Source: Minisyncoccia bacterium (GTDB lineage Bacteria; Patescibacteriota; Minisyncoccia; Phycocordibacterales; Phycocordibacteraceae). Taken from it: a stretch of 64,000 bases of DNA. Under the pieces are notes generated by a model, which made no database searches, was not told the DNA's origin, and saw only the letters and a list, made by a program, of their open reading frames with translations. The stretch spans positions 69,752-133,751 of the forward strand of contig JBBQZW010000002.1 of NCBI GenBank assembly GCA_038207395.1, written 5' to 3'. Position numbers and translations under genes: made by a program. Each line of letters starts with the position of its first letter. The first letter of the stretch is position 1. Positions 9,218-25,850 of the stretch are shown piece by piece.

Positions 9218-10597
9218 TTAAACTAAGAGACCACGAATTTCCTGAATCTCTTTTGAAAGTTCCGGATCATCAACGACTTCACGTTTAACTTTTTCACATG
9301 AGTGAATTACGGTGGTGTGATCACGTCCTCCAAGCTTGTTCCCGATAGTTGGATACGAAACACTAAAGTCTTCCCGGAGAATATACATAATTACCTGGCG
9401 AGGGCGTACTACTTCCCTTCTTCGAGTCTTTTCGTAAATACTGTCTTCTTCAATACCGTAATACTCTGCAACTTTAGAAACAACATGCTTAACGGAGAAG
9501 TTTTTTGTTGGGCGTGATACCGAGCGAAGAAGTTGGCGCACTTCTGCAAGGTCAGGAGACATTCCTTTTACTTGGGTGTGGCACACAATGCTATTAAGCA
9601 CCCCTTCAAGTTCACGGATTGAACCCGCAACTGAAGTGGCAATATGTTCAGTGGCGTCGTCAGCAAGCGTAACTCCGTTACTTGCAAGTTTCTTACGTAC
9701 AATAGCAATCCGGGATTCTGTGTCTGGCTCAGTAATATCAACGGTCATACCGCTTGCAAGGCGCCCACGAAGACGGTCAGCAATGTCGGGAATTGATATA
9801 GGGGCTCGGTCAGAGGAGAAAAGAATCTGACGGTTGTTGTCGTACAAAGAATTAAAAAGATGGAAGAGTTCCTCCTGCATTTTCTCCTTCTTCGAAAGGA
9901 ATTGAATATCATCCATGATCAAAAGATCATACTGACGGTATTTTTCCTTAAAACGATTAGCTGTTCCTGATTGAAGTGAGTCAGTATAGTCCGTACCAAA
10001 TTTCTCTGATGTTAAGTAAAAGACTTTCCGGTTAGGATATTTCTTCTTATATTCGTTCCCTATCGCCTGAATAAGGTGTGTTTTTCCACGACCAGTATCA
10101 CCATATATAAAAAGAGGGTTATACGTGATTCCGGGGCGATTTAGAGCGGCCTGGGCTGCTGTGTAGGCGAGTTCATTAAAGGCACCGACTACAAATGAAT
10201 CAAAGGTATAGCGCGGATTAAGGTTATCGCTCTTATTTATATAAAAATCATCAAGCGGAAGCTCCGGCGCAGGTGCTGAAGCATGAGAACGCTTCACTTC
10301 GCGTGGCTTACGTGCAAGGTCTTTTACGATATGGTACTCAATATTCCGATATTCATATGAAACATCTCGCAATATCTTAAGAATAAGAGAATTAAACTTC
10401 TTTATGTACCAATCTTTAAAGAAAAGGCTTGGAACACCAATCATCACAATTCCGTCCTCAATGCGGGTTATAGAGCTTTCACGGAACCACGTATTGAAGT
10501 TTGCTGAAGAGATCGAAAGTTCAACCTGTGAAAGTACGTACTCCCACAACTCATGAGGATCTGAACGATTAACGGTTTGGGTGGCTGCAGTACTCAT
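9218..10597 (-). CDS. dnaA: chromosomal replication initiator DnaA
   Basis: AAA+ Walker A GDTGRGKTHL, Walker B LLIMDDIQF, C-terminal DnaA-box binding domain. 459 aa. Confidence 0.95.
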   Translation of the reverse strand: MSTAATQTVNRSDPHELWEYVLSQVELSISSANFNTWFRESSITRIEDGIVMIGVPSLFFKDWYIKKFNSLILKILRDVSYEYRNIEYHIVKDLARKPREVKRSHASAPAPELPLDDFYINKSDNLNPRYTFDSFVVGAFNELAYTAAQAALNRPGITYNPLFIYGDTGRGKTHLIQAIGNEYKKKYPNRKVFYLTSEKFGTDYTDSLQSGTANRFKEKYRQYDLLIMDDIQFLSKKEKMQEELFHLFNSLYDNNRQILFSSDRAPISIPDIADRLRGRLASGMTVDITEPDTESRIAIVRKKLASNGVTLADDATEHIATSVAGSIRELEGVLNSIVCHTQVKGMSPDLAEVRQLLRSVSRPTKNFSVKHVVSKVAEYYGIEEDSIYEKTRRREVVRPRQVIMYILREDFSVSYPTIGNKLGGRDHTTVIHSCEKVKREVVDDPELSKEIQEIRGLLV

Positions 10598-10780
10598 AAG
10601 AAGAAGGTGAACTAAAAATGAAATTCACGATGCGTTATGCGACTCATTTCATCAGTTCTTCCAGGTACGGTGTGCATCGTAGTCGTAGTATACGCGTGTA
10701 CGCGCGCGTGGGAAGAGGCATTACATTCTTCTGTATTTGTTGCGTGTTCTGCGTCAACCTGGTACTATCCTGTGGACAAC

Positions 10781-10933
10781 ATGCCTAAGCGAACCTACCA
10801 GCCAAAAAAGCGCAAACGCGCTCGAACACACGGATTTCTTGCCCGAACTGCCACTCCTGGCGGTCGTCGCGTGATACTTGCTCGTCGCCGTAAAGGACGC
10901 GCAAGCCTCACGGTCTCCAAAAAAGTCCGTTAA
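10781..10933 (+). CDS. rpmH: 50S ribosomal protein L34
   Basis: [40 protein letters not shown] is the L34 consensus. ATG at 10781; the track ORF is an upstream extension. One-mismatch DnaA box TGTGGACAA immediately upstream (10771-10779). Confidence 0.9.
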
Positions 10934-10965
10934 TTCAATTCCCTAGAGGGAATTAGTGAAATTAT

Positions 10966-11286
10966 ATGCTTCCGCGAACCCTCCGACTCCCCAGGCAGGG
11001 ATTTGAGAACACACGAGGACTCCGTCGTATGACGAGTCCTCATTTCTCTATATCATATGGGTATATTGAGGGATTTGGTGGCTCGGCTATTATTGTTCCC
11101 AAAAAGGCAGTAAAAGGAGCTGTGACACGGCACCTGCTTAAGCGTCGTGTACGTGCTCTTATTCAGCCCTGGAGCAGCTCAGAACAAGTACTTATTATTA
11201 CTGCTCGCTCAGGATCTGCAGACCTTACTCGAGTTGCGCTAAAAGACGAGCTTTCACAAGCACTTACCGCTATACTGTCCACATAA
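10966..11286 (+). CDS. rnpA: ribonuclease P protein component
   Basis: Position after rpmH. Basic about 106 aa protein with an IVPKKAVKGAVTRHLLKRRVR motif typical of RnpA. Confidence 0.8.
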   Translation: MLPRTLRLPRQGFENTRGLRRMTSPHFSISYGYIEGFGGSAIIVPKKAVKGAVTRHLLKRRVRALIQPWSSSEQVLIITARSGSADLTRVALKDELSQALTAILST

Positions 11287-11287
11287 C

Positions 11288-12031
11288 ATGATCCTTTCCT
11301 TCTTTCACACGTACCTATACGTACCAATCTATAACCTCCTCATTTTCTTTGTAGGAATCGTACCAAATGGAGATGTCGGTATTGCTGTTATCGTTGTAAC
11401 GATAGTGGTAAAAATTATCATTACTCCCTTTTCCATTAGCGCAGTCAAAACACAGCGTCGAATGAAGTTCCTTGAGCCCCAAATGAAGGTGATTAAGGAA
11501 AAATATAAGGATAATAAGGAAAAACAGGCACTCGAAACGCTTGCTCTTTATAAAAATAACGGCGTTAAACCGTTTTCAAGTATCTTCGCGAGCTTCCTTC
11601 AACTCCCGGTAATTATCTCTCTCTATCTTGTTTTTAGTCACGAACACCTGGTTGCACCAAACGTATCGATTATCTATAGCTTTATCTCGTTCCCTGCGCA
11701 TATTTCACCGCTCTTCCTTGGCCTTTTCTCAACAACAGGCCACACGATAATTCTTACGGGAATTGCAGTTATTGCTCAGTTCCTCCAGGCATACCTTACT
11801 ATCCCTGTTCCTGAAAAACCCGAGAACGGGGTTGCTACAGGTGCAGAAGAATTCTCACGCGCTCTTTCACTGCAGTCTCGCTTCATTCTCCCTGTTATTA
11901 TCGGTGTTGTTGCGTACGCCTCAGGCGCACTCGCTCTCTACTTTATTACCAGTAGTATCATTGGAATCATCCAAGAGTATTACGTGCGATACGAACTCCG
12001 TTACCTTGAAATGCCTAAAGCGGTTAGTTAA
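11288..12031 (+). CDS. yidC: membrane protein insertase YidC (short form)
   Basis: rpmH-rnpA-yidC synteny. Multi-TM 247 aa with the conserved YidC/Oxa1 helix-1 region and the KEKQ...LYK..GVNP-like motif (ALYKNNGVKPFSS). Confidence 0.8.
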   Translation: MILSFFHTYLYVPIYNLLIFFVGIVPNGDVGIAVIVVTIVVKIIITPFSISAVKTQRRMKFLEPQMKVIKEKYKDNKEKQALETLALYKNNGVKPFSSIFASFLQLPVIISLYLVFSHEHLVAPNVSIIYSFISFPAHISPLFLGLFSTTGHTIILTGIAVIAQFLQAYLTIPVPEKPENGVATGAEEFSRALSLQSRFILPVIIGVVAYASGALALYFITSSIIGIIQEYYVRYELRYLEMPKAVS

Positions 12032-13332
12032 AGGTCGTAACTAAAGAGTGCGCCTGAGTGCTTGTCTGAAAATACAAGAATATCTTCTGAAGGGTCGAGA
12101 GTAAGGTTTACCGCATCTACCTGTATCTTCCCTATTTGATTAGGGTCAAGGACAAGGGTTGCTACGCGTTGAGTTAGATCAATCTTCCAAATACGGTCAG
12201 TAAAAGTAATAGCCCCTTGGTACCAATCATCAGGAAGATTGCCTGAGAGGTTTGTAGGTACTGCGCAGTACACCGAAAGACCATCTGCAGTCCACACACA
12301 CTTCTCACTTAATGTTGATACTGGAAGTGCTGTACTTGCGCGAGTCGCGACATTTAATACGCGGAGCTGGTACACTCCCCCACTCGTGTAGCTATATATA
12401 AGTGACGACCCGTTCAAACTGGGAAGTACTGATAGTCCTCGGAACGCTCCAAGCACACGGCTAAAGTTTCCGGTGGTGCGATTGATTTGAAATGCATACC
12501 CGTCAATTTGAGATGACGGCTTGTTGTTTGCGAAAAGATCTCCCGTGCTTGGGTGCACCGTAATGGCTGACAGAAGCGAAGAGAATAATGTGCGGGAATT
12601 AGACCCGTCAGCACGTGAGAGTGTCCCTACCGACCCTGTACTGCCAGAGAAGAGGGTAAACAGCGTACTTGAACCAACAACGTCTACTTGTGCAAGATCA
12701 TTCTCAAGCAAATACCCGTCTCCCCCGTTTGCGTTAAGTGCGTAGGTGTTAACTGACTCTTTACCTGCACTGGTTGCTAAAAATTGAGCGTATGCGCGCG
12801 TTCCGTCAGGAGTCCACGAAGCTCGCTGGATTCCCGGAAGAGTCTTATTTGAAATACGAGTAAGGGTTCGCGCGTGTGCAATGTATGAGTATACGTTTCC
12901 GCTCGCGCGATCAATGAACCGGACCTCAACGTCAGGGGTAGTTGCGGGAGTAGATATTGGGGTGTTTGTTGATTTTTTAACGGTAGTTGTAGTGGTTGCG
13001 GTTGATGTGGCAGAAAGAGAAACCGTCTCAACGTTTGTGGTAATTGCTGCAGCGTCAGGATTTGGAAGTTGAATAGGAAGCGCTACAGAACCATGTGCAA
13101 CCGGTCCATCAGTAATTTTCACAAAGCGCGGTGCAAGGGTGGTACCGGCATTCTGTATGATGCCATCAGTCGGTAAATCAGTACTTGGTGCAGAAGCACC
13201 ACTTCCTGTATTTGCGAACGGATCCCCCACTGAAAGGTTTGCACTCTTAGGTGCAAAGAATAGGAAGTACACACCAATCAAAATCCCAATCAGAACTACT
13301 ATTCCTGCGATGATAATGAAGAGACGTTTCAT
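12028..13332 (-). CDS. membrane-anchored Thr-rich beta-rich protein (last gene of the T4SS-like cluster)
   Basis: N-terminal TM (FIIIAGIVVLIGILIGVYFLFF), poly-Thr linker, long beta-rich ectodomain. Only 10 nt from the next gene. Confidence 0.4.
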   Translation of the reverse strand: MKRLFIIIAGIVVLIGILIGVYFLFFAPKSANLSVGDPFANTGSGASAPSTDLPTDGIIQNAGTTLAPRFVKITDGPVAHGSVALPIQLPNPDAAAITTNVETVSLSATSTATTTTTVKKSTNTPISTPATTPDVEVRFIDRASGNVYSYIAHARTLTRISNKTLPGIQRASWTPDGTRAYAQFLATSAGKESVNTYALNANGGDGYLLENDLAQVDVVGSSTLFTLFSGSTGSVGTLSRADGSNSRTLFSSLLSAITVHPSTGDLFANNKPSSQIDGYAFQINRTTGNFSRVLGAFRGLSVLPSLNGSSLIYSYTSGGVYQLRVLNVATRASTALPVSTLSEKCVWTADGLSVYCAVPTNLSGNLPDDWYQGAITFTDRIWKIDLTQRVATLVLDPNQIGKIQVDAVNLTLDPSEDILVFSDKHSGALFSYDL

Positions 13333-13342
13333 AGAGATATCA

Positions 13343-14341
13343 CTACGAGTTTGGACATAGTGGAAGCTTAGAGAGTGTTGTGTAACTACTTGCTGGAAGA
13401 GGTTTTGCTAACGTTGCACTCGTTAATTTAGAATCGTCAGTATTGCAATTATTACCCAAAGCACGAAGACCAGGTTGTCTACTAAACGTGTTTGCCGCCG
13501 AAGTACAGGTGGATTTTGAAGTATAGTGAGCGGTATTTTCAATAGTACACTTTTCACCTGTATCATAATTAGTGTCTTGGTAATAGTAATCAACGGTAAA
13601 GTTCCCCTTATCAGTTGTAGGATCGGAGATTGGTTTTGATGGCGTCTGGTCATTTGCCGGATCATACCCACAACATGTGTTCTTGGTATCAGAAATTGCA
13701 CAGCAGGTATCTGAATAATGAGCCCAACCCTTACCTATCGCGCTACAAACCGACGCGGCATCTTTTCCTGAAGGAAGAGGAACAGTTTGTTTTTTAACTA
13801 TAGAACTACATACCTTAGCTTCGGAACTTGTCGAAGGACTACTTACATCGTAATTTGAATTCAACTTGGTTTGAAGCGCACTTACGTCGAGATTAAGTTT
13901 TAGGATATCAGGGTTAATGATGCCAAATACTATCGTTGGGGCCAAAATAAGCACCAAACCCAAAATTGCATTTTGAATACGAGATTTTGCCTTCTCATTT
14001 GAGGTGACGCTCCCTGAGCTTGTCATGATCTGCACACCGGCAACCATTATCATGATCACGGCCAATACCGCACCAGCACCAATCATTATTTTGTAGAGCT
14101 GATTAAGAAAGTTCGGAAGAGTACTTGCTGATACCGCATCCTTAATTCCAGGAAGAGCGGTGAGTGGTTCGAATTTTATTGGTTGAGCACTATCCGAAGC
14201 AGTCGCCGATACTCCTGGCGTGGCTGCAGTGGCTTTATTGTTATTTTGAGCAAAAGTGGTAAATGGAGTGCTGATCAGAAATAGAAAAGCAAAAACTACC
14301 GCTACCTTAGCTGTTAGTCGTAAAAGAGTGCTAGTTTTCAT
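13343..14341 (-). CDS. VirB2/TrbC-like pilin-type protein with Cys-rich C-terminal extension
   Basis: Signal peptide, then two hydrophobic helices (IMIGAGAVLAVIMIMVAGVQI / AILGLVLILAPTIVFGII) in the VirB2/TrbC arrangement. An extension of about 180 aa holds 11 Cys. Confidence 0.4.
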   Translation of the reverse strand: MKTSTLLRLTAKVAVVFAFLFLISTPFTTFAQNNNKATAATPGVSATASDSAQPIKFEPLTALPGIKDAVSASTLPNFLNQLYKIMIGAGAVLAVIMIMVAGVQIMTSSGSVTSNEKAKSRIQNAILGLVLILAPTIVFGIINPDILKLNLDVSALQTKLNSNYDVSSPSTSSEAKVCSSIVKKQTVPLPSGKDAASVCSAIGKGWAHYSDTCCAISDTKNTCCGYDPANDQTPSKPISDPTTDKGNFTVDYYYQDTNYDTGEKCTIENTAHYTSKSTCTSAANTFSRQPGLRALGNNCNTDDSKLTSATLAKPLPASSYTTLSKLPLCPNS

Positions 14342-14343
14342 AA

Positions 14344-15330
14344 TTAAAAGCCAAAGAGATTCGATACCGCCTTACCAAATGTTACGGACAGTGAACTGTT
14401 TGCAGATTGGCCAAGAGACCCAGACGAGCCCGATATATTCAGAATAGCAGTTCCTTGTCCGTTTCCTGCGGGACGAACGGTAATATCTTGCCCGGTCTGG
14501 CTTGGAGAACCATTTACCTCCCAGGTCAGAGATGGAATGCTGGTGAAGTAGTACGGAACTGCTCGATACGTAGCTTCTGCGCTTGTTAATGCGACTGCAC
14601 GGGTAAGAGCGGTATCATACCGAACCCCAAGTAATGGATCATTTTCGTATATACGAATTAGTGGGTCACGGGGAGCTATAAAGACTGAAGCTTGACCAAC
14701 AACGCTGCTGTCTTGGCTTGATACGGTGACTGACAGTGTCGTGTTGCGGTATCGAATAGGGGCGGTGGCAGTAAGTACTGATTTGCCAATACCTGAGGAA
14801 CTTTGAAGAATTTGCTCACCATTTTTCCACGTATATACAAGATTCTGCGAAGGAATCTGAACACCCTTTGACGTTCGCAGGTCAGGTACTGCAATAATGC
14901 GGAGACGTCCCTCGCTACCAATTAACGCAGCCCCCTCATAGAAAGGATGGCTCGTTGAGGTTGGCTCAAGAACGAGCGCGACATCAGCAGGATGAATACT
15001 AATGGATTTACTATACGTCTGGCCATTATTTACTGCAGTAACTTTTATGTTCGTAACCGTGCCAGGCCCACCAACGGCAATACTCGCACTTTCTGAACCA
15101 GTCCCCTTCTGTACAACTACACCATTTACTGAAAATGTAATGGTACTAGCTGACAGATCAATAAGCGTACTCTCTGGGGTAATGGTAACGATTTGATATG
15201 GACGGGGGTAATCAGGATCGATTGTGATAGTTAACGGATCGGTTGTTCCGATTTGAGCATGAGTTACATATACCGCACTCAAGCCAAAAAGAAGGAGGGA
15301 TGTAAAAAGTGTTTTACGAAGCACAGACAT
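14344..15330 (-). CDS. secreted beta-rich protein (T4SS-like cluster)
   Basis: Signal peptide MSVLRKTLFTSLLLFGLSAVYVTHAQ. Ser/Thr-rich, Ig-like composition. Confidence 0.4.
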   Translation of the reverse strand: MSVLRKTLFTSLLLFGLSAVYVTHAQIGTTDPLTITIDPDYPRPYQIVTITPESTLIDLSASTITFSVNGVVVQKGTGSESASIAVGGPGTVTNIKVTAVNNGQTYSKSISIHPADVALVLEPTSTSHPFYEGAALIGSEGRLRIIAVPDLRTSKGVQIPSQNLVYTWKNGEQILQSSSGIGKSVLTATAPIRYRNTTLSVTVSSQDSSVVGQASVFIAPRDPLIRIYENDPLLGVRYDTALTRAVALTSAEATYRAVPYYFTSIPSLTWEVNGSPSQTGQDITVRPAGNGQGTAILNISGSSGSLGQSANSSLSVTFGKAVSNLFGF

Positions 15331-15393
15331 GCCTACAGTATAGCGCCCCTCAGGATATCTTTAGCCACCACACGCCGTACATATGGGTATTAG

Positions 15394-15852
15394 TTATACT
15401 GCCTCCTGGAATTCTTCCCTTGAATTAGTATCGTTTGTCGCAGTGGGTGGTGGTATTTTTTGAGCACCAAAACGTATTCTGTTTGAAGTAGAGGAAGGAA
15501 TCGTCTTCTTTTTTGTTTCACCCATACGACTACCAACAATAACGCCAATAACGCCAGCAGTAATACCTGGAAGTCCATCTAAGAAAGGAACAAGCTCAAG
15601 TATGGTTGATCCAAATACTGAAAAGCTTTTTAAACCAGCTCCTTTCCCACTGAAATAATTAACCTTGCAAAGCGCAAACCAAACACCAAAAATACAGATT
15701 GAAAGGAATGCGATGAATATTGAGAGTGGCGCTGTAACTACCAGTAAGGTTAGAAGGAACTGGAAACCGTCCAAAAGAAGGGCCAGCCCGATCATAAAAG
15801 CGGCAGTGATATTTGAAATCTTGTGTGGAACAGTACCTGATGACTCTGCCAT
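15394..15852 (-). CDS. small polytopic membrane protein (T4SS-like cluster)
   Basis: 152 aa with 3-4 predicted TM helices. Confidence 0.4.
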   Translation of the reverse strand: MAESSGTVPHKISNITAAFMIGLALLLDGFQFLLTLLVVTAPLSIFIAFLSICIFGVWFALCKVNYFSGKGAGLKSFSVFGSTILELVPFLDGLPGITAGVIGVIVGSRMGETKKKTIPSSTSNRIRFGAQKIPPPTATNDTNSREEFQEAV

Positions 15853-15862
15853 ACCAGACTAG

Positions 15863-17686
15863 TTATGAATCCTTCTCCGTCTCAATTCGCTGTTTTTCTC
15901 GTTTTATTGCCAAAAGCTGTGAGGGGTCAGAGGTAATAATTTGATCTTCGGTATACGATGCAACAATTTTAATTGCCACATGCTTAAGACCTGCAAAGAA
16001 GAGTCCCTCGCCCACTCCTGATTCGAGGAGAAGAAATTTCTCCTCGTCGGTAAGGTTAAATGTTTCCTTGAGAACTTCGATAGTCGTTGGAGATTGCTTC
16101 AGAAGAAGTTGGATAGAAGAGTTGGTGAGAATGGGACGTCCGTATGGGCTGCGCAAGAAGTCTTCAACGTCTTGGGTGACGGTAGCGAGTCCGAGGAAAT
16201 ACTTACGACCACGCTTTGCAAGACCAAATAAGAACGATGCTGTGTCTTCAGACTTCATCATCCACCACGCCTCATCAATGATTAAGAGGCGCTTCTTAAG
16301 CTCTGCCCGAACGGCGTTCCAGATGAAGTGCGTAACAATGTACATTGCCACTGGTTTAAGCTCATCCTCCATGTCACGCACAGAAAACACAATGAATTGC
16401 TTGTTAATATCGACGTTAGTGGGACGATTAAGGAAACCTGACCAGGTACCACGAGTGTATTTCGTAAGACGTGTCACGAGTGACTGTGAGCCTTCCATAC
16501 CTGAAAGTACATTCTCAAAGTCAGAGAGAAGTGGAGGCTCCATACCATTAAAGTTTGAATCCCCCGTAATGTCTTTCAAGGCATATGTTTCAGAAATGGC
16601 ACGGTCAATGATTGCATCCTCTTCGGGAGTAAGACCACCAAGCATGATACGGAAGAGTCCGACCAGGTTAATAATGTTAGAGCGAAGAATGTCAGTGGGT
16701 TCCTCATCTTCTTTGACCATAGGAAGGTCAAAAGGATTGATATGGTGTTCGCTCGAAAGAGAGATGTTGAACATTCGACCGCCGGTCGCTTGTGCCAGGT
16801 ATTCGTATTCACGCTCTGGGTCGATAACAATAACGTCTGTGTCAAACATGAGTGAGCGTAGAATCTCAAGCTTAACGGCATATGACTTACCTGAACCAGA
16901 CTTTGCAAACACTACCGAGTTATAGTTTTCAAGCGAGAAACGGTCAAAAAGAATAAGTGATGCGTTATGACGATTAATCCCGTAGAGAATACCGCGGTCA
17001 CTTGAGAGGTCGAATGATACAAAAGGGAAAATACTTGATAATGGGGATGAATTGAGCTTGTTATGGACTTCAAGTTCGTCAGTGGCAATAGGAAGTGTAG
17101 AGCGGAAGCCTTGTGCTTGCTCGAAGAGTGCTGGTTTTGTATACACTAACTTCGAATCAAGAATTCCTCTGACATCACCCTCAATCTTGTCGAGTTCTTC
17201 CTTTGAGCTTGCGTAGAGCGTCATGTATAGACCAACGTCAAATAGACGTTCCTGCGCTTGCTGGAGATTATCACGAAGGGTTTCCAGATCCTGATATGCG
17301 GTGTCGAGCATAGGATCACGCACCAATCCTTTCGCTTCCCTGTCTGAAATCTGACTTTGCACTTCTGCCACCTTACGCTGAAAATTCTTTAACGCGTCCG
17401 CTGTATCTACGGGGTGAACAAAGATGGAAACATCAAATACCTTATCAAGGTTAATAATTGGGGTGAACCAACTGTCTGTGAGATAGCGGGGGTATGAAAT
17501 AGTGTAGAACGTACGGGAAACCTTCTCCCCGAGCTCTATTTCTTTTGACCCAACCTTAAGTGCCGCTGGCGCTATTGCATCAGCAAGCTCAAGCTTCCCT
17601 GCGGCATATATATCTTTAGGTAGTACGGGGGCAATCTTAGGCCCGTCATCGTTGTTCCCGCGGTTTAAAAAATCTAAAAGTGCCAT
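15863..17686 (-). CDS. VirB4/TrbE/CagE-family type IV secretion ATPase (ATPase portion)
   Basis: Walker A VVFAKSGSGKSY, Walker B RLLIIDEAWWMM, TVTQDVEDF motif. YTISYPRYL-type N-terminal region characteristic of VirB4/PrgJ/TcpF. Confidence 0.8.
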   Translation of the reverse strand: MALLDFLNRGNNDDGPKIAPVLPKDIYAAGKLELADAIAPAALKVGSKEIELGEKVSRTFYTISYPRYLTDSWFTPIINLDKVFDVSIFVHPVDTADALKNFQRKVAEVQSQISDREAKGLVRDPMLDTAYQDLETLRDNLQQAQERLFDVGLYMTLYASSKEELDKIEGDVRGILDSKLVYTKPALFEQAQGFRSTLPIATDELEVHNKLNSSPLSSIFPFVSFDLSSDRGILYGINRHNASLILFDRFSLENYNSVVFAKSGSGKSYAVKLEILRSLMFDTDVIVIDPEREYEYLAQATGGRMFNISLSSEHHINPFDLPMVKEDEEPTDILRSNIINLVGLFRIMLGGLTPEEDAIIDRAISETYALKDITGDSNFNGMEPPLLSDFENVLSGMEGSQSLVTRLTKYTRGTWSGFLNRPTNVDINKQFIVFSVRDMEDELKPVAMYIVTHFIWNAVRAELKKRLLIIDEAWWMMKSEDTASFLFGLAKRGRKYFLGLATVTQDVEDFLRSPYGRPILTNSSIQLLLKQSPTTIEVLKETFNLTDEEKFLLLESGVGEGLFFAGLKHVAIKIVASYTEDQIITSDPSQLLAIKREKQRIETEKDS

Positions 17687-17698
17687 ATAAAGTAGTAG

Positions 17699-18331
17699 CT
17701 ATTGCTGAGTATACGGTATAGGGTTCTCCATATCCCCCAAATTAAAAGATCGGTACAGAAGCTCGATAATCTCTTCTGTGCCTAGTGGTACGGCACGAAG
17801 ACCTGAAGAGGCTAACCCTCCTGCCACAAGAGCCATACGTTGCTCGAGCTGAATTCGTGTTTCTTCGAATGATTGATTATCTGCGGCAGTGTTTGCTGAG
17901 CGACTTTTTAAGAAAGATAATCCTCCAGCTGCCTGAGCAATAGAAACCGTTGTGTATGGAACCACCACATAGAAGGTTTTGGTCATAATATCCGCCCCCT
18001 CAATAAAGTTGCGAATGAAGGCAATGTATTCCCGAAGCTGGATGCGCATAAGCTCACTCGTTTGTTTGTCTAAACGCTCCTGGAGCAAATTCAAATACGG
18101 GCGGATATCTGTTTTACGTGAATGTACAACTATCTGTACTGAAAAGTCGAGTGTATTGAGAAAGTTTTGGAACCCGCCGATAATGGCACGTTGCTCGTCT
18201 TCAGACTTAAGTGCAAAGTTAAGAGAAGAACAAGCCATAATACCGCGGTACCCACCATTTTTAAGAATAATCACACCATTGCGAACTTCTTCAACAGGTA
18301 CAAAGTCTTGTGTTGGTTTTGAGCTTGCCAT
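17699..18331 (-). CDS. VirB4 N-terminal domain-like protein (separated from the ATPase ORF by one in-frame TAG)
   Basis: VPVEEVRNGVIILKNGGYRGIMACSSLNFALKSEDEQ...QIVVHSRK matches the VirB4/CagE N-terminal pattern. The stop at 17699-17701 is in frame with the ATG at 17686, only 4 sense codons further on. Confidence 0.5.
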   Translation of the reverse strand: MASSKPTQDFVPVEEVRNGVIILKNGGYRGIMACSSLNFALKSEDEQRAIIGGFQNFLNTLDFSVQIVVHSRKTDIRPYLNLLQERLDKQTSELMRIQLREYIAFIRNFIEGADIMTKTFYVVVPYTTVSIAQAAGGLSFLKSRSANTAADNQSFEETRIQLEQRMALVAGGLASSGLRAVPLGTEEIIELLYRSFNLGDMENPIPYTQQ

Positions 18332-18337
18332 AGAGAG

Positions 18338-18751
18338 TTATTTGGTAGAAATGTTTCGATCCTGAATATCAAGCGAAAGTGCTAAATCATGCAATTTGTT
18401 ACCTGAAAGCGTGAGTTTTTCGCGCACAGGCATCACGGCCTTTATTTGGATCGGTGCTGCATTCTCATCTTTCTTTTCTTTTCGCCACAGATATAACTGG
18501 CTGTTGGTGTAAAAAGAGAATCCCGCGCCTAAAATATCAACAAAGCTCTTATTATTTATCTTATAAAAAGAAAGTGCGATGGCCAATGACATTACCGGGA
18601 TGGCAAGTAGTGCTGCGAATAGGAATGGTAGATAGAGAAAGATAATAACGGAAAGCCCGATACCTCCGCCCATAAATACAAATTGTTTCCAGGTGAGCGG
18701 ACCAAAAATCTTATCTTCAACCTCAATAAACTGTGGTACTTGGTACTCCAT
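18338..18751 (-). CDS. PrgI/VirB3-like two-TM protein
   Basis: 137 aa with two adjacent TM helices after a short N-terminus (PLTWKQFVFMGGGIGLSVIIFLYLPFLFAALLAIPVMSLAIALSFY), as in PrgI/VirB3. Immediately upstream of the VirB4 homologue. Confidence 0.5.
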   Translation of the reverse strand: MEYQVPQFIEVEDKIFGPLTWKQFVFMGGGIGLSVIIFLYLPFLFAALLAIPVMSLAIALSFYKINNKSFVDILGAGFSFYTNSQLYLWRKEKKDENAAPIQIKAVMPVREKLTLSGNKLHDLALSLDIQDRNISTK

Positions 18752-18799
18752 TAGTTAGTAGTATACCGCACGGCTGAAACGAATATTAAAAACCTGTAT

Positions 18800-19345
18800 C
18801 TAATGGCCACCTCCACTAGGTTTCTTTTTTGGGGCGCCCCCTCCTCCTCCCCCACCTGCACCAAGTACTTTTTCCGAACCCGCCTTTAGTCCGCTGAACG
18901 AGAGTGCAATAGTTGCGACAAAAGCACCCAAGGCCAATTTCGCACCTCCCCACAGAAATGTACCGACCTTCTTAAAAAGGCCACCGAATTTTGTTTCTTT
19001 GCCAGAATGTATTGTGGTAGACCCAATTCCTGATGGAGGCTGACCTCCGCTACCCACTTCCGATGGAGTTGTAGTGGGGTTTGATACTGAATTTATAGTT
19101 TCTGTGGTCTGTTTTGGGGTAGATTCAGAACTTGCTGACTCCCTTGGCCCTATTGTCTCAGGAAAACTCTCATCTGAACCTAATGTATCTAAGTGTTCTT
19201 TAATTTCTGCAATCTTTTCCTCAGTGGAAATTACGTCATTAATAATCTCATTATCATTAACTGCCTCAATTTTTTGCACCTCACTCTCAGTCATTGGAGT
19301 AAGGTTTTCTGAAGCACTTGCATTAATTTTTCGTAAAGATTCCAT
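18800..19345 (-). CDS. hypothetical protein with acidic N-terminus, C-terminal TM and Gly-rich tail
   Basis: Part of the co-directional cluster. No recognisable family. Confidence 0.4.
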   Translation of the reverse strand: MESLRKINASASENLTPMTESEVQKIEAVNDNEIINDVISTEEKIAEIKEHLDTLGSDESFPETIGPRESASSESTPKQTTETINSVSNPTTTPSEVGSGGQPPSGIGSTTIHSGKETKFGGLFKKVGTFLWGGAKLALGAFVATIALSFSGLKAGSEKVLGAGGGGGGGAPKKKPSGGGH

Positions 19346-19356
19346 AGTACGCTTTC

Positions 19357-20160
19357 TTATATAGTATTCCGATACGGGTCAGTTTGGTATGGAGTATCAG
19401 CTTGCACGGGGCGCAACGGTCGTTCTTCTAGAGGTTTTGACTCGGTGATAATAGGTTTAATTTCTGGAGTTGAAAACACTGGATACTGAACTGGTGGTGG
19501 TGACGTAAATGGAACTGAAGAAGTCTGAAATGAGCGAGCAGGAGTTGTCTGCATAGGATGCTGTATTGCTGCCATATCACTACTCATTGTTCTAATGGCA
19601 GGAAATTCCATAGCTGGAGGGTTAGAAACAATCGATGGGATTTCTCGATTTATAAGATTGTAAGCGGGTGGCGGCACGGGGATAGGTTTAATTTCTTGTC
19701 GTGCTTCAACACTTAATACTGGTACCTGAGGCGCAGGCGGAACACTCGTTTGGGTGGGAGGTGCCTGTGGTGGTGTGGGAGCGATGTTAAAAGAAGGATC
19801 ATACTCAGCCTCAGGCTCATCCTCTTCAGGGGTATTCAACGTATCGGCTCCCTCTCGGATTCGCTTTTGTAGTGGTTGAAAGATCTCTTCATTAACTTTT
19901 TTAACAATACCCGTCGCATCATTTGCTCCGATCCCGAGATCAAGAAGGCCTTGATAAAATGTGGCCGGATCAACTAAGCCGAGTAACATAAATCCAAGGT
20001 CTTCAGCAATTTTACCGGTCACATCAACATGCAAGTTGTAGCTAGACTGAACGCTTTTTATCACTTGTATAGTTGCATCGCTTCCCATCGCCTCACGAAC
20101 AATGCGGGGTGCGGTTTTATAGGCTTGAATAAATTGATCCCTGTTCAACAATTGAGGCAT
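19357..20160 (-). CDS. proline-rich hypothetical protein
   Basis: 267 aa. Second half is Pro-rich (PTPPQAPPTQTSVPPAPQVP...). Confidence 0.4.
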   Translation of the reverse strand: MPQLLNRDQFIQAYKTAPRIVREAMGSDATIQVIKSVQSSYNLHVDVTGKIAEDLGFMLLGLVDPATFYQGLLDLGIGANDATGIVKKVNEEIFQPLQKRIREGADTLNTPEEDEPEAEYDPSFNIAPTPPQAPPTQTSVPPAPQVPVLSVEARQEIKPIPVPPPAYNLINREIPSIVSNPPAMEFPAIRTMSSDMAAIQHPMQTTPARSFQTSSVPFTSPPPVQYPVFSTPEIKPIITESKPLEERPLRPVQADTPYQTDPYRNTI

Positions 20161-20161
20161 G

Positions 20162-22459
20162 CTATGACCAGTATGCCATACCCGCAGGGCTTGTTAAATA
20201 ATCAACAGTAGTTTTGGTGCCATACTTTTCAATTTGAGCCTTAATTCTCTTTGCTGCTGAATCATCAATTTCATTACGCTCCTGTATTGCTGCAAGTATT
20301 TTTGGCGTTAGGACCCGAGCAGCTGCTTCTGATTCCAACACCTCTGATTTAAGTCGCGCTGCTTGTTTAGGGTTCAGTTTTGCTATCTTTGCTACAGCCG
20401 CAGCCACATCAGTTGGGCTTGTAGCTTCTGCAAACGCAGTATTTGTTAGTTCAACAGGATCAAACTGTCGTACTTTGCGGGCAACACCCGGGCTTAGTTT
20501 CCCACCCCTAAGAAGATCGTCTCGTTGTGCGTTAGTGAGAGAGCTTGTTATAAAATCATCAGTAAGGAGGGTTGAAGGACTATTTTCTAGGTCTTTAGCG
20601 GAGTATTTTTTAATACGATCCTTGATGGTTTTCTGTGCAACACCCTTCTCGGCTGGTGTTGTAGTCGTGCTTGTGATAATTGCTTGTTGGTCACGTATAT
20701 CCTTAAAGCGAGCTTCTTTAATTACTCCCTGCTGCTGTACGGTAAATGCTCCCCCATCTTTTACTAATGCAGCAAACTTCTCTGGAGACAGGTTCTGTAC
20801 AAGTGCATCAAGATCTTTCCCTGACTTCTTCATTAGATCTAGTTCTTCTAACTCCTTGGTGCTTAAACGCTCAAGAATTTCCGCGACACGGTTATCCTTT
20901 GAAGTGCTTTTAGGTAGCGATAACGCAGAATCAAGTTCTGACCTAAGATTTGCCTTGCGTCCAATCTCTCCAAACACCTTATCTCGAGCCTCTTTCTCAG
21001 CCTTCTTCTCCTTAAAGGATGCTCCGCTACCAAAACGAGCATTTTGACCCGCCTTAAGAGTTCCTGATATTGCCTTATCAATAGGGCTATTAGAGATAAA
21101 GTTACGTACTCCCTTAGGTGCCTTTCCGACCAAAGATTCATATTTCTTCTGTGCATATACGCTACCCTTGCCGATTGTCGACCTCCCTGCGAAACCACCC
21201 GCAGCACCATACGTACCTAAAACTATTTTTTTAGAAAAACCTATTGCTCCTGCGGCTCCTGCTGCTCCCAAACTTTTGGCAGCCACAAGCGAAGCAACTA
21301 AGAAGCCAATGACAATCGTAAAGATCATTATAGTTCCCATTGCTGAAGCATCAGGGCTCGTAATTGCACCAGCTAAACCAACAGCGGTTGTGCCCGAACC
21401 GCCCGTGATGAAACCATCAGTAATTTTTAAACTTATAAAAAGAAGAAGGAATAAAACGGGTGCAAAGAATGCTTGAGAAATAAGCTTGCTCCACCAGTCA
21501 TTTGCAAATCTGCGAAGTGGAGGAATTGCCATACCTGCAAATCCAATTGGAGCAGAAACCATAAGAAAACTTAAAACAACAACTCGAATAACTAACATAA
21601 TTGCAGCCGCAAACATAACGATGGCACCAATAGTTGAAAAAAGAGCCAAACCTATAAAGGTCACTGCCTCAACACCAAGGTTTCCGTTTACCTTAAAGAG
21701 TGACGCAAGACCGGTGGACTGCATTATGTGACCCGCTATACCGTAATCAACAATACACTTCGCGTCCTGTTCAGAAATCCCGACAGCACTAAATATACCT
21801 CCGCTAATATCTAAGCAAGGGTCAGTATTTGCTTGAGAATAAAATACAGAACTAAGTGCATTTGAAGTGTCTATAACAGCCTCTGCAGCAAACAAACTAA
21901 AGTTCATAAGAACAGCGAAGATAAGTAGCTGAGGTATTGCTTTTCGGGTAGGAAAACTATGGAGATCCAATATTGTTGCGAGACCCATAAAAATAAAACC
22001 AAACAAAAGAAGCATGTTTCCTATATCACGCATGATCCCCCATGCGAGCAAGAGACCAGGGGAATTACCGATTAAATTACCAAATTGAAAAACTGTTTTA
22101 ATTACTACCCAGTTCAAAAGTGCTCCGGCTACTCCCAATAAAAGATTTGCAAACGTTAATATAAATCCCGCAACAGTCTTTAAAAGACATGAACCTAACG
22201 TAAAGAAACTATCACAACTGTTAGTTGCGTTGCCCGCTGGGGGAGGTGTGCTATTGGAGGCTGGTTTCGCATTTGGATCAGCGCTTCCTAAATCAGCTTG
22301 TCCGGCTGAAGTACTTGCAACATTGGTCGGAGAAGAGGTGCTAACTTTTTGAGGTGCAGAAGATTGGGCACTAGCGCTCGAAGGTTGATACGCGAAAAAT
22401 AAAATGAGTAAGAAAATACCACCTACTACTGAAAGACTTCTGCGCGTAAATCTCGCCAT
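20162..22459 (-). CDS. VirB6/TrbL-like polytopic membrane protein with long charged C-terminal domain
   Basis: Signal peptide plus Ser/Pro-rich stretch, then at least 6 TM helices over about 300 aa, then a roughly 330 aa hydrophilic tail. This architecture is typical of VirB6/TrbL-type channel proteins. Confidence 0.45.
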   Translation of the reverse strand: MARFTRRSLSVVGGIFLLILFFAYQPSSASAQSSAPQKVSTSSPTNVASTSAGQADLGSADPNAKPASNSTPPPAGNATNSCDSFFTLGSCLLKTVAGFILTFANLLLGVAGALLNWVVIKTVFQFGNLIGNSPGLLLAWGIMRDIGNMLLLFGFIFMGLATILDLHSFPTRKAIPQLLIFAVLMNFSLFAAEAVIDTSNALSSVFYSQANTDPCLDISGGIFSAVGISEQDAKCIVDYGIAGHIMQSTGLASLFKVNGNLGVEAVTFIGLALFSTIGAIVMFAAAIMLVIRVVVLSFLMVSAPIGFAGMAIPPLRRFANDWWSKLISQAFFAPVLFLLLFISLKITDGFITGGSGTTAVGLAGAITSPDASAMGTIMIFTIVIGFLVASLVAAKSLGAAGAAGAIGFSKKIVLGTYGAAGGFAGRSTIGKGSVYAQKKYESLVGKAPKGVRNFISNSPIDKAISGTLKAGQNARFGSGASFKEKKAEKEARDKVFGEIGRKANLRSELDSALSLPKSTSKDNRVAEILERLSTKELEELDLMKKSGKDLDALVQNLSPEKFAALVKDGGAFTVQQQGVIKEARFKDIRDQQAIITSTTTTPAEKGVAQKTIKDRIKKYSAKDLENSPSTLLTDDFITSSLTNAQRDDLLRGGKLSPGVARKVRQFDPVELTNTAFAEATSPTDVAAAVAKIAKLNPKQAARLKSEVLESEAAARVLTPKILAAIQERNEIDDSAAKRIKAQIEKYGTKTTVDYLTSPAGMAYWS

Positions 22460-22462
22460 AGG

Positions 22463-23938
22463 TTATGTACCGTTTGAACTTGTAACACCACAATTTTTTG
22501 AAAGAGTTATCATCTTGTCATATAGATTTTTTGAACCCGATGTATCCTGACTCTGTATACCTGCCTCAGCTATCTCTGATGCATTAGGGATTTCTGGTGA
22601 TGAGAGATATGACTGGTAGTTAGCAAGTGCGGAGGTTATTACGGTGCCCTTAGAAACCGAGGTGCTTTGGGAAGCTCCCTCAACTTCACTTTTAATTGAT
22701 GCAATTTTTGTTAGCGCCGCATCCCCTTTTGCCACACCAGCTGTAGCTTGATCAATTACAGCAGAGACATCAGGTCGTACACCGCAGGTAGTTTGAGCAT
22801 TAGTTGCTGCGCTTAAAATTTTCTGCCAGTTATCACGGAAAGAAGATACGTTTGTCTCGTCATTTTTGATGTTTTGAATAACTCCACTAGCAAGACTTGA
22901 GTTAACCGCATCATACTGAGTTGGGCTCGTTGCTGCTTCCAAAGGAGAACGTCCTCCGCCAGCAGAAGGCTGTGATGCACCAAGAAGTCCTCCTGCTCCC
23001 AGAACTTGGTTTACTAACTGTCCCAGCAACGCTCCAACAATTTCGTTGATAGAGTCAGCAAGTTCAAGCTGGCGAATTCCCGAGCCAAGACTGTTCTCAA
23101 GCTGACTCTCAATAACTGAGCCAGGGGTTCGTACTGCGTTGAAGAGACATTTCTCTGTCTTAGACAGTGCTACAGAAGCATCACCACCAGAGGTAGACTT
23201 ATTACAACTACCTCTCCATGGAAGAAATCCCTTACCCCACCCAAGCTCAGCTTTGCGCTGCTGTGCTGCAGAATCAATCTGCGCAAAGAGCTGATTGCTT
23301 GCAAGCTGGTATGCGCCGAATGGATTATTCGCAGGATTCTGACTTGCTGATAGAAAGGCACTAATACCTCCTTGATTGAAGTCACCATTTAAGAATGCTT
23401 TAGGGTCCTTGCTTTGCTGATCTAGAGTGTAGTTCAGACCCCAACTACTAGTAGTACGATAATACTCTTCACGAAGCTTCTGGCTTATTTGATCTTGAAA
23501 AGGAGACTTTATATCAAATCCAGTTGCACTAACAACAGTATTATTTAGGTTATTAATAAAATCATCTGCTATAGCGTCTCCTAAGTATTGAAGATTACTC
23601 CTCAAATCACTTACAAAAGAAGGCGATCCGCTAAAGCCCGAATTAATCCAATTCACCGTACTTCGTGTCAGAGATTGGATAGTTAGTTTCGCAACAGTCC
23701 ATGCAAGACCGTTCAATGCGTTTAAAATAACGGTTTGAGTGACTGTACTTGCACCTGTTGCAACGACTCCCGCAACAACGGCAGGGTTAATTTCAAATGA
23801 GAGACCTCCAAACTGAGCGTGTGCTTTAGGTACTGAAACAATACTAAAAGGTGTGTATGACGCAGTAATTGCAATAACAAGACTGATTGCAACAGCTCTG
23901 ACTGAAATATTCTTTAGCCGGTTAGTTTTGTAGATCAT
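22463..23938 (-). CDS. secreted hypothetical protein (T4SS-like cluster)
   Basis: Signal-anchor at the N-terminus. 491 aa, Ser/Ala/Gln-rich. Confidence 0.4.
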   Translation of the reverse strand: MIYKTNRLKNISVRAVAISLVIAITASYTPFSIVSVPKAHAQFGGLSFEINPAVVAGVVATGASTVTQTVILNALNGLAWTVAKLTIQSLTRSTVNWINSGFSGSPSFVSDLRSNLQYLGDAIADDFINNLNNTVVSATGFDIKSPFQDQISQKLREEYYRTTSSWGLNYTLDQQSKDPKAFLNGDFNQGGISAFLSASQNPANNPFGAYQLASNQLFAQIDSAAQQRKAELGWGKGFLPWRGSCNKSTSGGDASVALSKTEKCLFNAVRTPGSVIESQLENSLGSGIRQLELADSINEIVGALLGQLVNQVLGAGGLLGASQPSAGGGRSPLEAATSPTQYDAVNSSLASGVIQNIKNDETNVSSFRDNWQKILSAATNAQTTCGVRPDVSAVIDQATAGVAKGDAALTKIASIKSEVEGASQSTSVSKGTVITSALANYQSYLSSPEIPNASEIAEAGIQSQDTSGSKNLYDKMITLSKNCGVTSSNGT

Positions 23939-24942
23939 TGTGTTTCAGCTGAGCGTGCAATACTCACAATCACTGACCCAGCAGTTCCGGCAGCAGGCTC
24001 CCCGCTTGAGAGGATGACTGTAGCGATATCTTTAAATCCTTTTACCACCAAAACACTAGATGGTTGGAAGTTAGACAACGCACCCATGAACGCCAAAGGA
24101 TCTTTTTCATAGGTTACCGCTGAAGCAGATGCTTTGTGTAGCTGATCAAATCCTCTAACAAGCTCAAGATGCTGATTCGCAAGTTGAGGAGGAATTCTAA
24201 GATCAAGAAGATCCTTAGTTATTGATGCATATGATTCTGAAAGCCTTTTAATCTTTGGGCGTGCTGACTCATCATTTTTCTCAATCAATGCTTCAAGAAG
24301 CGGGATAGGTTGATTCGCGTCAGCTGGAACATCGTTTGTTCGAAGTACTCCTTCAACTGAATCAGCATACGCAGTTATAGAAACACTTGGGTCTGTGTGT
24401 AGTGAAATGGTTGTGTAGGTTGAACCGTATAGAGCAGATGCTTTAACGGTGAACTCCCCTAAAAGCTTAAGAGCAAGTGCTTGCTGCTGCTCTGGAGTGA
24501 GAGGCTGACCCCTGCTCGCATCAAGATATTTCTGGAGAAACTCCTGAGAGAACTGTTCGGTAATACTTCCAGGAGCTGGATCAACCCCAGGAAGATCTGC
24601 GGCAGTAAGGGTGGTGGTTCCTTGTTCGCCGCTTGGGAGCTGTGAGGCTGCAGTTTGAGGGGTTAGTTTCCCTTCCTTTGCTGCCTGACCGTCAGGAATG
24701 CCGAATGAATTACTTATTGCTTTGTTTGGGTCAGTGCCATACAAAGCTTCCTGCCAATCAGGAAGACCGTCGCCATCAGTATCTTTTGCAGCGTACGCCT
24801 TAAGGAGTTCTTCAGTACTGCCAGCGTTTGCAAATTTCTGACTAAAGAATGAAGGTCCGGACAGTAAGTACGCACTACTTACCATGAGGAGTGCGAGTAA
24901 TGAAGCAGCACTAATGCGAAGTGTACGTTCGGGGATCTTCAT
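23935..24942 (-). CDS. secreted protein with thrombospondin-type-3-like Ca-binding motif (first gene of the cluster)
   Basis: Signal peptide. DTDGDGLPDWQEALYGTDP matches the DxDxDGxxDxxE TSP3/OmpA-type calcium-binding repeat. Confidence 0.4.
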   Translation of the reverse strand: MKIPERTLRISAASLLALLMVSSAYLLSGPSFFSQKFANAGSTEELLKAYAAKDTDGDGLPDWQEALYGTDPNKAISNSFGIPDGQAAKEGKLTPQTAASQLPSGEQGTTTLTAADLPGVDPAPGSITEQFSQEFLQKYLDASRGQPLTPEQQQALALKLLGEFTVKASALYGSTYTTISLHTDPSVSITAYADSVEGVLRTNDVPADANQPIPLLEALIEKNDESARPKIKRLSESYASITKDLLDLRIPPQLANQHLELVRGFDQLHKASASAVTYEKDPLAFMGALSNFQPSSVLVVKGFKDIATVILSSGEPAAGTAGSVIVSIARSAETQ

Positions 24943-25028
24943 AGAAGCTCCATATATAGTATCACCGTACGCCTGGTACTCGTCATGTCGGTATCGTATA
25001 GGTGTGTATTACCTCTACCCGTATATGT

Positions 25029-25811
25029 TTATAAAAGCGCTGACGCTAGTTTTTTCCACTGAGGGATAGTGACATCTTCAGACCGAGTATTTGGGGTGAG
25101 CCCAATCTCACTCATCGCAGCAATAATATCTGCGGATGATGCGCAAACCTCAAGGTTTTTGGCTAATCTCTTTCGTTTATGAGCAAATCCGGCTTTAAGG
25201 AGAGTAAAAAAGTATTCCTCAGCCATACGGGACGGAAATGATTCGCTAGAAATAGCGCGAATGGCAAGGACAGCAGAGTCCACGGAAGGCGCGGGGCGGA
25301 ACGCCCCGCGCGGCACGGTAAAGCAGTATTCTGGTGTTCCATATACTTTCACCGAAACTGAAAGAATACTCTCCTTCCCTTTATTGCGTGCAATACGCTC
25401 AGCAACTTCTTTTTGTACGAGCACGGTCATGCTTTTAGGTTTGTGCTCTGCACTAAGGAACTGGCGTATAATCTCACCGGTTATGTAGTATGGAATATTT
25501 GCGACCACATGGTATTCGCCCTCAATGCTTGTACTCTCCACATTCCGGATATCTTCGTGAAGAATATCTAACTTCCCTTCCCTAATTTCAGCTGCAAATG
25601 TTTCGCGAAGTTCAGGAGCAAGTGCATCATCTGCTTCAACCGCAATCACCTTCTTCGCGCTCTCAAGAAGTGCGCGCGTCAGCATGCCAGTACCCGGTCC
25701 AATCTCAAGTACTACGGCATCCTCCGGAAGTGCAGCAGCAAGCACAATACGCTCTGCAGTCTGCGGGTGCATTAAAAAGTTTTGTCCGAGGGATTTCTTT
25801 GCGAAAGGCAT
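25029..25811 (-). CDS. rsmA: 16S rRNA (adenine1518/1519-N6)-dimethyltransferase
   Basis: KSLGQNFL ... VLEIGPGTGMLT SAM-binding motif. 260 aa. Confidence 0.85.
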   Translation of the reverse strand: MPFAKKSLGQNFLMHPQTAERIVLAAALPEDAVVLEIGPGTGMLTRALLESAKKVIAVEADDALAPELRETFAAEIREGKLDILHEDIRNVESTSIEGEYHVVANIPYYITGEIIRQFLSAEHKPKSMTVLVQKEVAERIARNKGKESILSVSVKVYGTPEYCFTVPRGAFRPAPSVDSAVLAIRAISSESFPSRMAEEYFFTLLKAGFAHKRKRLAKNLEVCASSADIIAAMSEIGLTPNTRSEDVTIPQWKKLASALL

Positions 25812-25850
25812 AGCTACAGCCTACCGCACCTTTCTTTCTACCGATACGTG

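Follow-up and report, generated by a model that had tools for sequence, protein, structure and literature searches.

Two Adjacent Genes at the virB4 Locus

This work concerns a virB4 locus in a Minisyncoccia bacterium, contained in a stretch of 64,000 nucleotides (nt) of contig JBBQZW010000002.1 (positions 69,752 to 133,751); this whole stretch is referred to as the window. On its minus strand, an open reading frame (ORF) of 210 amino acids (aa), here called ORF A, ends in a TAG codon. Four sense codons later, and in the same frame, begins a 607-aa ORF, ORF B, which encodes the VirB4-type ATPase of a type IV secretion system (T4SS) (Table 1). ORF A, the spacer and ORF B make up a single frame of 823 codons with one stop between them, just as an earlier reading made from the letters alone (the sequence-only reading) had described the junction. 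That reading took the locus for a VirB4 homologue split by a single in-frame amber codon, and it named four explanations to be told apart, namely a nonsense mutation of recent origin, an error in sequencing or assembly, readthrough of the stop codon, and a genuinely two-chain VirB4. Our comparisons point to the last of these. The locus very probably holds two separate, conserved and co-transcribed T4SS genes forming a two-chain VirB4, with a real TAG stop and a spacer that is in frame by chance.

ORF B is the ATPase-bearing part. It contains the Pfam domain P-loop_TraG (residues 252-554, 91.3 bits against a cut-off of 25.8), with further matches to AAA_10 and DUF87, and it scores 382.9 bits (cut-off 325) against NF045971, the NCBIfam model of the CD1110-family VirB4. 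Residues 230-586 match the crystal structure of the VirB4 C-terminal domain (4AG5, E 7e-44), and residues 256-560 match residues 446-741 of TrwK. It is not, however, a full-length one-chain VirB4, a protein of about 750-830 aa that includes an N-terminal portion of about 200, since its match starts only at position 183 of the 752 positions in NF045971. The first ~170 positions of this profile are matched by the separate ORF A and not by ORF B. The two proteins tile the profile in order, ORF A (residues 8-172, E 1.4e-7) at positions 2-166 and ORF B (residues 30-571) at positions 183-733. ORF B carries what remains of the VirB4 N-terminal region, in its residues ~30-230, as well as the C-terminal ATPase domain.

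The relationship of ORF A to VirB4 is visible only through the NCBIfam profiles and a fold search. Besides the CD1110-family model, ORF A matches positions 101-234 of the 894 positions in the Mbov_0397-family VirB4 model (NF045975, E 6.9e-9) and, weakly, positions 16-142 of the 201 in the TrsD/TraD model NF041427 (E 3.4e-4). The Pfam family PF26593, “TraC-like”, is the precomputed annotation for the identical 210-aa protein on record in NCBI (P0001) and for all of the best 120 among 6651 ORF A homologues. Our local copy of Pfam-A, which probably does not include the PF26593 model, gave no match to ORF A at E<=0.01 or at E<=10. A search of the PDB sequences with the ORF A family profile returned nothing meaningful, the best match being a ketoacyl-ACP reductase at E 1.5. 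The fold search was based on an AlphaFold model of ORF A built from a 78-sequence alignment, with a mean predicted local distance difference test score (pLDDT) of 87.7. In Foldseek, the top 14 PDB matches of this model were all R388 TrwK/VirB4 chains (E 8e-5 to 8e-3, probability 1.00, ~210 aligned columns, in an output that gives no aligned TrwK residue range), and the next PDB match came at E 0.26. No hydrophobic transmembrane stretch was seen in the ORF A sequence. ORF A is truly homologous to the opening ~200 residues of full-length VirB4, and probably belongs to the TrsD-like or PF26593 “TraC-like” family. The resemblance to the VirB4 N-terminal region noticed in the sequence-only reading is thereby borne out by the NCBIfam profiles, by the TrwK/VirB4 fold matches and by a fused relative, P0255.

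The Junction in Related Genomes

The junction was compared at 49 loci, namely the window and 48 species-representative Patescibacteria genomes (Parcubacteria, Paceibacterota, Kaiserbacteria and others). The two-ORF layout, with an ORF A of ~200 aa directly 5' of virB4, is found in 49 of the 49. The stop codon of ORF A is TAA at 39 loci, TAG at 8 and TGA at 2. The spacer from this stop to the ATG of ORF B ranges from 1 to 142 nt, with lengths of 1, 2 and 3 nt in 10, 9 and 14 loci; its length modulo 3 is 0, 1 and 2 in 22, 14 and 13 loci, respectively, which leaves 27 of the 49 junctions out of frame. ORF B starts with M-[AS]-L-L-D-F in 45 loci, the other four, which include the three most distant relatives (41-50% identity), having a different start. 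Across the relatives, identity to the window residue averages 0.73 in ORF A and 0.87 in ORF B. The split is kept across the relatives, so that ORF A and ORF B are separate neighbouring genes, in a layout common to thousands of related ultra-small bacteria.

The spacer itself is not conserved in sequence, even among relatives at 85-89% identity. In these closest relatives the junction reads TAGctATG (2 nt) or TAGcatATG (3 nt), or has a spacer of 21 nt, and the window spacer is 10 nt longer than that of the closest species-representative genomes. The 12-nt spacer of the window is a small lineage-specific indel whose length is by chance a multiple of three. The in-frame relation of the two ORFs is likewise best taken as a coincidence, and as no more than chance, because one in three spacers is expected to be in frame and the relatives show all three frames.

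Three of the loci have much longer spacers (L021, 102 nt; L024, 142 nt; L048, 141 nt). Within the spacer of L024, a terminator-like GC-rich stretch leads into a T-run, and a TATACT lies 8 nt ahead of the ATG; from these motifs, the counterparts of ORF A and ORF B in that genome can be separate transcription units.

The lengths of the homologues tell the same story as the junctions. Among the 6651 homologues of ORF A, the best 120, which reach down to 72% identity, are without exception standalone proteins of 197-214 aa, and the best 120 for ORF B are likewise standalone, at 603-617 aa. Among the top 150 representatives of clusters at 50% identity, 149 are standalone and 1 is fused. The fused protein, P0255, has 797 aa. 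Its residues 8-213 align with ORF A (38% identity, E 5e-45) and its residues 225-796 with ORF B (57% identity), in the latter case only from ORF B residue 29, and the two parts are joined at a point other than the window junction. This distant cluster representative is the sole fused form seen; no uninterrupted form was found among relatives at >=41% identity.

Some of the standalone cluster representatives carry disordered C-terminal tails. In P0203, P0222 and P0161 (406-443 aa), low-complexity tails of ~200 aa, rich in Pro, Ala, Gln and Thr, begin past the conserved domain. A tail of this kind on the ORF A homologue cannot be reconciled with a one-chain VirB4.

The part of ORF B that P0255 lacks, an N-terminal peptide of ~28 residues, consists of two conserved blocks with a variable linker between them; the conservation is 0.81 for MALLDFLNRG, 0.43 for the linker and 0.87 for VLPKDIYAAG. 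Because residues ~1-30 of ORF B are conserved in the split forms and absent from the fused P0255, they may, speculatively, be a candidate peptide for re-association with ORF A. A further arrangement of the same parts may be reflected in the model NF042935 (the actinobacterial SCO6880 family, 477 positions), which the PrgI-like protein encoded upstream of ORF A matches at positions 12-77 and the N-terminal region of ORF B at positions 363-476. This pattern hints at a fusion of VirB3 with the VirB4 N-domain, lacking the ATPase, in Actinobacteria, that is, at another cut of the same module.

Weighing the Explanations

A recent nonsense mutation, in which the change of a sense codon into TAG knocked out a formerly single 817-aa virB4 and left the system decaying, would account for two ORFs that are in frame with just 4 sense codons between them, and the existence of the fused 797-aa relative would fit it as well. 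We nevertheless give this explanation next to no chance. The 48 species-representative relatives, as well as the closest metagenomic relatives, all have the stop at the orthologous position; in most of them it is TAA, and most of the junctions are out of frame. Conservation is strong in both ORFs, and ORF B has its own conserved start codon. P0255 is only 38% and 57% identical to ORF A and ORF B, and its two parts are joined at a different point. The alignment with related genomes was a check that the sequence-only reading had itself proposed, and the layout found, two ORFs in all 48 genomes with spacers mostly not in frame and stops mostly TAA, is what that reading said would refute a nonsense event; it also speaks against a VirB4 split by one amber codon. 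An error of sequencing or assembly that created the TAG in a genome with one true ORF is practically inconceivable: nothing specific favours it, and it is excluded because many independent assemblies, from many studies and platforms, agree on the stop. The identical 210-aa protein on record is a further point against it.

It is also conceivable that the TAG is read through, by a programmed mechanism or a suppressor tRNA, to give a fused VirB4, perhaps beside the two separate chains. The window junction is in frame, and frame 0 is the commonest class among the loci. The frame-0 excess, however, is mainly due to the 3-nt spacers and is not significant (chi-square ~3 with 2 degrees of freedom, for genomes that are not independent). 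Readthrough as a design is excluded because neither the frame nor the identity of the stop is conserved; on some plasmids, moreover, the two genes overlap, and the spacer sequence already differs among relatives at 85-89% identity. In the window, TAG terminates 18 of the 47 long ORFs (38%), among them clpP, pgk and the pilB-type T2SSE ATPase gene, which agrees with the sequence-only reading that TAG is a working stop here, and 0 of the 4 tRNA genes have a CUA anticodon. Taken together, we regard readthrough as highly improbable. A different kind of alternative holds that ORF A is an unrelated accessory protein encoded beside virB4, and that ORF B is by itself a short but complete VirB4. The empty scan of the local Pfam-A library and the failure of the ORF A family profile to find a sequence-level match in the PDB would fit this idea. 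It is quite improbable all the same, as ORF A and ORF B line up one after the other along the full-length VirB4 models, a fused relative exists, the fold match of ORF A is specific to TrwK/VirB4, and the published homology of TrsD to the VirB4 N-terminus agrees (PMC12102498). A genuinely two-chain VirB4 is then the sole explanation left from those first listed, and it has already been described, as TrsD plus VirB4 (PMC12102498).

The Operon and Its Surroundings

The two genes are part of a T4SS-like cluster on the minus strand (~12028..24942), which lies between dnaA/yidC and ksgA/uvrD-type helicase genes in the region examined (9218..27854) and probably adjoins the replication origin. No relaxase or coupling protein was seen in the cluster flanks that were scanned, in agreement with what has been published for Paceibacteria (PMC12102498). 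Six of the cluster ORFs have no match in Pfam or NCBIfam, and are presumably divergent VirB6/VirB8-like and pilin-associated components.

Table 1. Coordinates in the window of the virB4 junction, the genes of the T4SS-like cluster and the flanking genes.
Feature	Position	Strand	Description
ORF A	17699..18331	minus	210 aa; C-terminal end ...PYTQQ; TAG stop
ORF A stop codon	17699..17701	minus	TAG; genuine terminator (stops at 49 loci; TAG usage in window)
Intergenic spacer	17687..17698	minus	12 nt, CTACTACTTTAT; CTA CTA CTT TAT = LLLY, in frame
ORF B, VirB4-type ATPase	15863..17686	minus	607 aa; ATG at 17684-17686; N-terminus MALLDFLN
ORF B N-terminal ~30 residues	17597..17686	minus	MALLDFLNRG and VLPKDIYAAG conserved, variable linker between
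Walker A	16883..16906	minus	AKSGSGKS, ORF B residues 261-268, read from sequence
Walker B	16271..16288	minus	LLIIDE, ORF B residues 467-472, read from sequence
PrgI-family (VirB3-like) gene	18338..18751	minus	PF12666 PrgI, E 2.6e-10; directly upstream of ORF A
T4SS pilin-like gene	13343..14341	minus	PF18895 T4SS_pilin; Mbov_0395 family pilin-like protein; same cluster
Unmatched cluster ORF	20162..22459	minus	765 aa
Unmatched cluster ORF	22463..23938	minus	491 aa
Unmatched cluster ORF	12028..13332	minus	434 aa
Unmatched cluster ORF	19357..20160	minus	267 aa
Unmatched cluster ORF	18800..19345	minus	181 aa
Unmatched cluster ORF	15394..15852	minus	152 aa
dnaA	9218..10597		cluster flank
yidC	11288..12031		cluster flank
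ksgA-type methyltransferase	25029..25811		cluster flank

The PrgI-like gene is probably the operon head, because a -10-like TATACT ends 8 nt before its ATG (upstream sequence gtgcggTATACTactaactaATG). The other junctions of the minus-strand cluster consist of a 4-nt overlap and of spacers of 1, 2, 3, 6, 10, 10 and 11 nt, and longer gaps occur only at two junctions that precede TATACT-type promoter-like motifs. The 12-nt junction between ORF A and ORF B fits this pattern of operon spacing. No Shine-Dalgarno (SD) site was found before ORF B; its absence is uninformative because the whole window is nearly devoid of SD motifs, an SD-like 4-mer being present upstream of just 2 of the 47 long ORFs.

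A second feature of gene starts in the window is a -10-like hexamer, TAYAMT, often in the context GTGCGGTATACT, which ends 4-14 nt before the ATG of 8 of 48 genes, where 0.43 would be expected by chance. The examples are found upstream of 18751(-), 11288(+), 15330(-), 33453(-), 34534(+), 49255(+), 51778(+) and 57194(+). The rarity of SD sites and the closeness of these hexamers to the ATG together suggest that the mRNAs at operon heads in this genome are leaderless or have very short leaders.

A Probable Two-Chain VirB4

How might a VirB4 made of two chains be produced and assembled? The host system is very probably a chromosomal monoderm-type (MPF-FATA-like) T4SS of a Paceibacteria/Parcubacteria (Patescibacteria) genome. 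In it, ORF A is the TrsD-like chain, the counterpart of the first ~200 residues of the canonical one-chain VirB4, and ORF B supplies the remaining N-terminal region and the ATPase domain. The TAG ends ORF A, and ORF B begins independently at its own conserved ATG (MALLDF...). Its translation would most likely take place by termination-reinitiation coupling, which is made likely by a genome nearly without SD sites and by operon genes only 1-12 nt apart, and which would yield the two chains in roughly equal amounts. ORF A could then re-associate non-covalently with residues 1 to ~230 of ORF B to give a functional VirB4 N-terminal module, and the re-formed module could dock the ATPase hexamer on the PrgI/VirB3-like protein encoded just upstream. 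In the solved structures of one-chain VirB4, the protomers within a dimer are joined through their N-terminal domains, which are also embedded at the membrane and touch both VirB3 and VirB8 (PMC12857230).

Several points weigh against this picture or parts of it. The match of ORF A to the curated TrsD/TraD model NF041427 is, at 20.5 bits, far under the cut-off of 200, and the assignment to PF26593 comes from precomputed annotations, the local Pfam-A scan being empty. An AlphaFold model of the fused P0255, made from a block alignment of homologues of both ORFs in order to see how the two parts pack, is of low confidence (pLDDT 61.6, predicted template modelling score 0.40) and uninformative on the interface; the ORF-A-like domain alone is confident, and the ATPase part has a pLDDT <50. 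The association of the chains, the translational coupling and the role of the N-terminal peptide of ORF B are all steps that we infer. It is also possible, judged from the sequence alone, that the in-frame TAG at 17699..17701 is read through at a low level.

A more ambitious version of the two-chain VirB4 would give the split a function of its own. The TrsD-like chain would then be a module for docking to the membrane and to VirB3 that could be dosed or exchanged independently, with the MALLDF...VLPKDIYAAG peptide as the tether between the two chains, and in this lineage the chance in-frame TAG might give rise to traces of a fused isoform. We consider this rather unlikely.

Comparison with Known Systems

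The two-chain layout of VirB4 is an ordinary gene arrangement that has already been published. Quinonero-Coronel et al. (Microb Genom 2025, PMC12102498) described TrsD as remotely homologous to the N-terminal part of VirB4. Of all T4SS components it was the one found most often in Patescibacteria, and 1,664 of its 2,272 homologues there were associated with virB4. According to the same study, the Patescibacteria T4SS cluster is often found near dnaA, ksgA and similar genes, and usually without a relaxase; a TrsD homologue is essential in Ca. Southlakia epibionticum ML1, and the T4SS is essential for epibiotic growth in the sole system tested. The window resembles these systems in the order of its genes (PrgI/VirB3-like, TrsD-like, VirB4, then VirB2-like pilin) and in the chromosomal location near dnaA and ksgA with no relaxase nearby, and its closest relatives are Paceibacteria/Parcubacteria genomes. 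There is no substantive difference; the sole peculiarity of the window is the 12-nt spacer that keeps the two genes in frame.

The window thus adds one more member to the family and nothing new beyond that. It is worth pointing out, however, that annotation should not treat this in-frame junction as a sign of a pseudogene or frameshift, nor as a site of recoding, and that the T4SS here counts as intact. The system itself is of real biological interest; it is essential for epibiotic growth where this has been tested (PMC12102498).

A similar small protein resembling the N-terminus of VirB4 is TrsD of the Staphylococcus aureus plasmid pGO1, the MPF-FATA prototype, where trsD lies directly upstream of trsE, the gene of the VirB4-type ATPase. 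The similarity of ORF A to the pGO1 TrsD family (NF041427) is very remote. pGO1, moreover, is conjugative and encodes a relaxase, whereas the cluster in the window is chromosomal and probably not conjugative.

Homologues of ORF A are also found on 118 plasmids, most of them from Bacillus, Clostridium and Paenibacillus, with others from haloarchaea, at 24-30% identity over ~90% of the length. Three of these plasmid loci were inspected: Pontibacillus NZ_CP062975 (L055), B. thuringiensis Bt407 NC_018878 (L056) and Haloglomus NZ_CP101168 (L057). In all three, the ORF-A-like gene lies directly before a gene for a VirB4/DUF87 ATPase of 621-781 aa. On the Bt407 plasmid an annotated PrgI-family gene is followed by the ORF-A-like gene, labelled “hypothetical protein”, and then by the ATPase gene; the annotated PrgI is seen in Bt407 only, the genes upstream in Pontibacillus and Haloglomus encoding only hypothetical proteins. 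Unlike ORF A of the window, the ORF-A-like proteins of these loci reach 274, 328 and 541 aa, and instead of a spacer there is an overlap of 4-14 nt between the two genes. The two-gene form is old and widespread in monoderm and archaeal systems, and it coexists with one-chain forms, namely the CD1110 family, the Mbov_0397 family and P0255.

A last comparison is with the one-chain VirB4 proteins (NF045971, NF045975 of the Mycoplasma integrative and conjugative element, and R388 TrwK, PDB 7O41 and 8RTD). Between them, ORF A and ORF B span the entire profile in order, the ATPase domain with its Walker A and Walker B motifs resides in ORF B, and the fold of ORF A matches that of TrwK. The difference is that the window makes two chains, with the break ~200 residues into the N-terminal region, and that ORF B, in comparison with the fused P0255, starts with an extra conserved peptide of ~28 residues.

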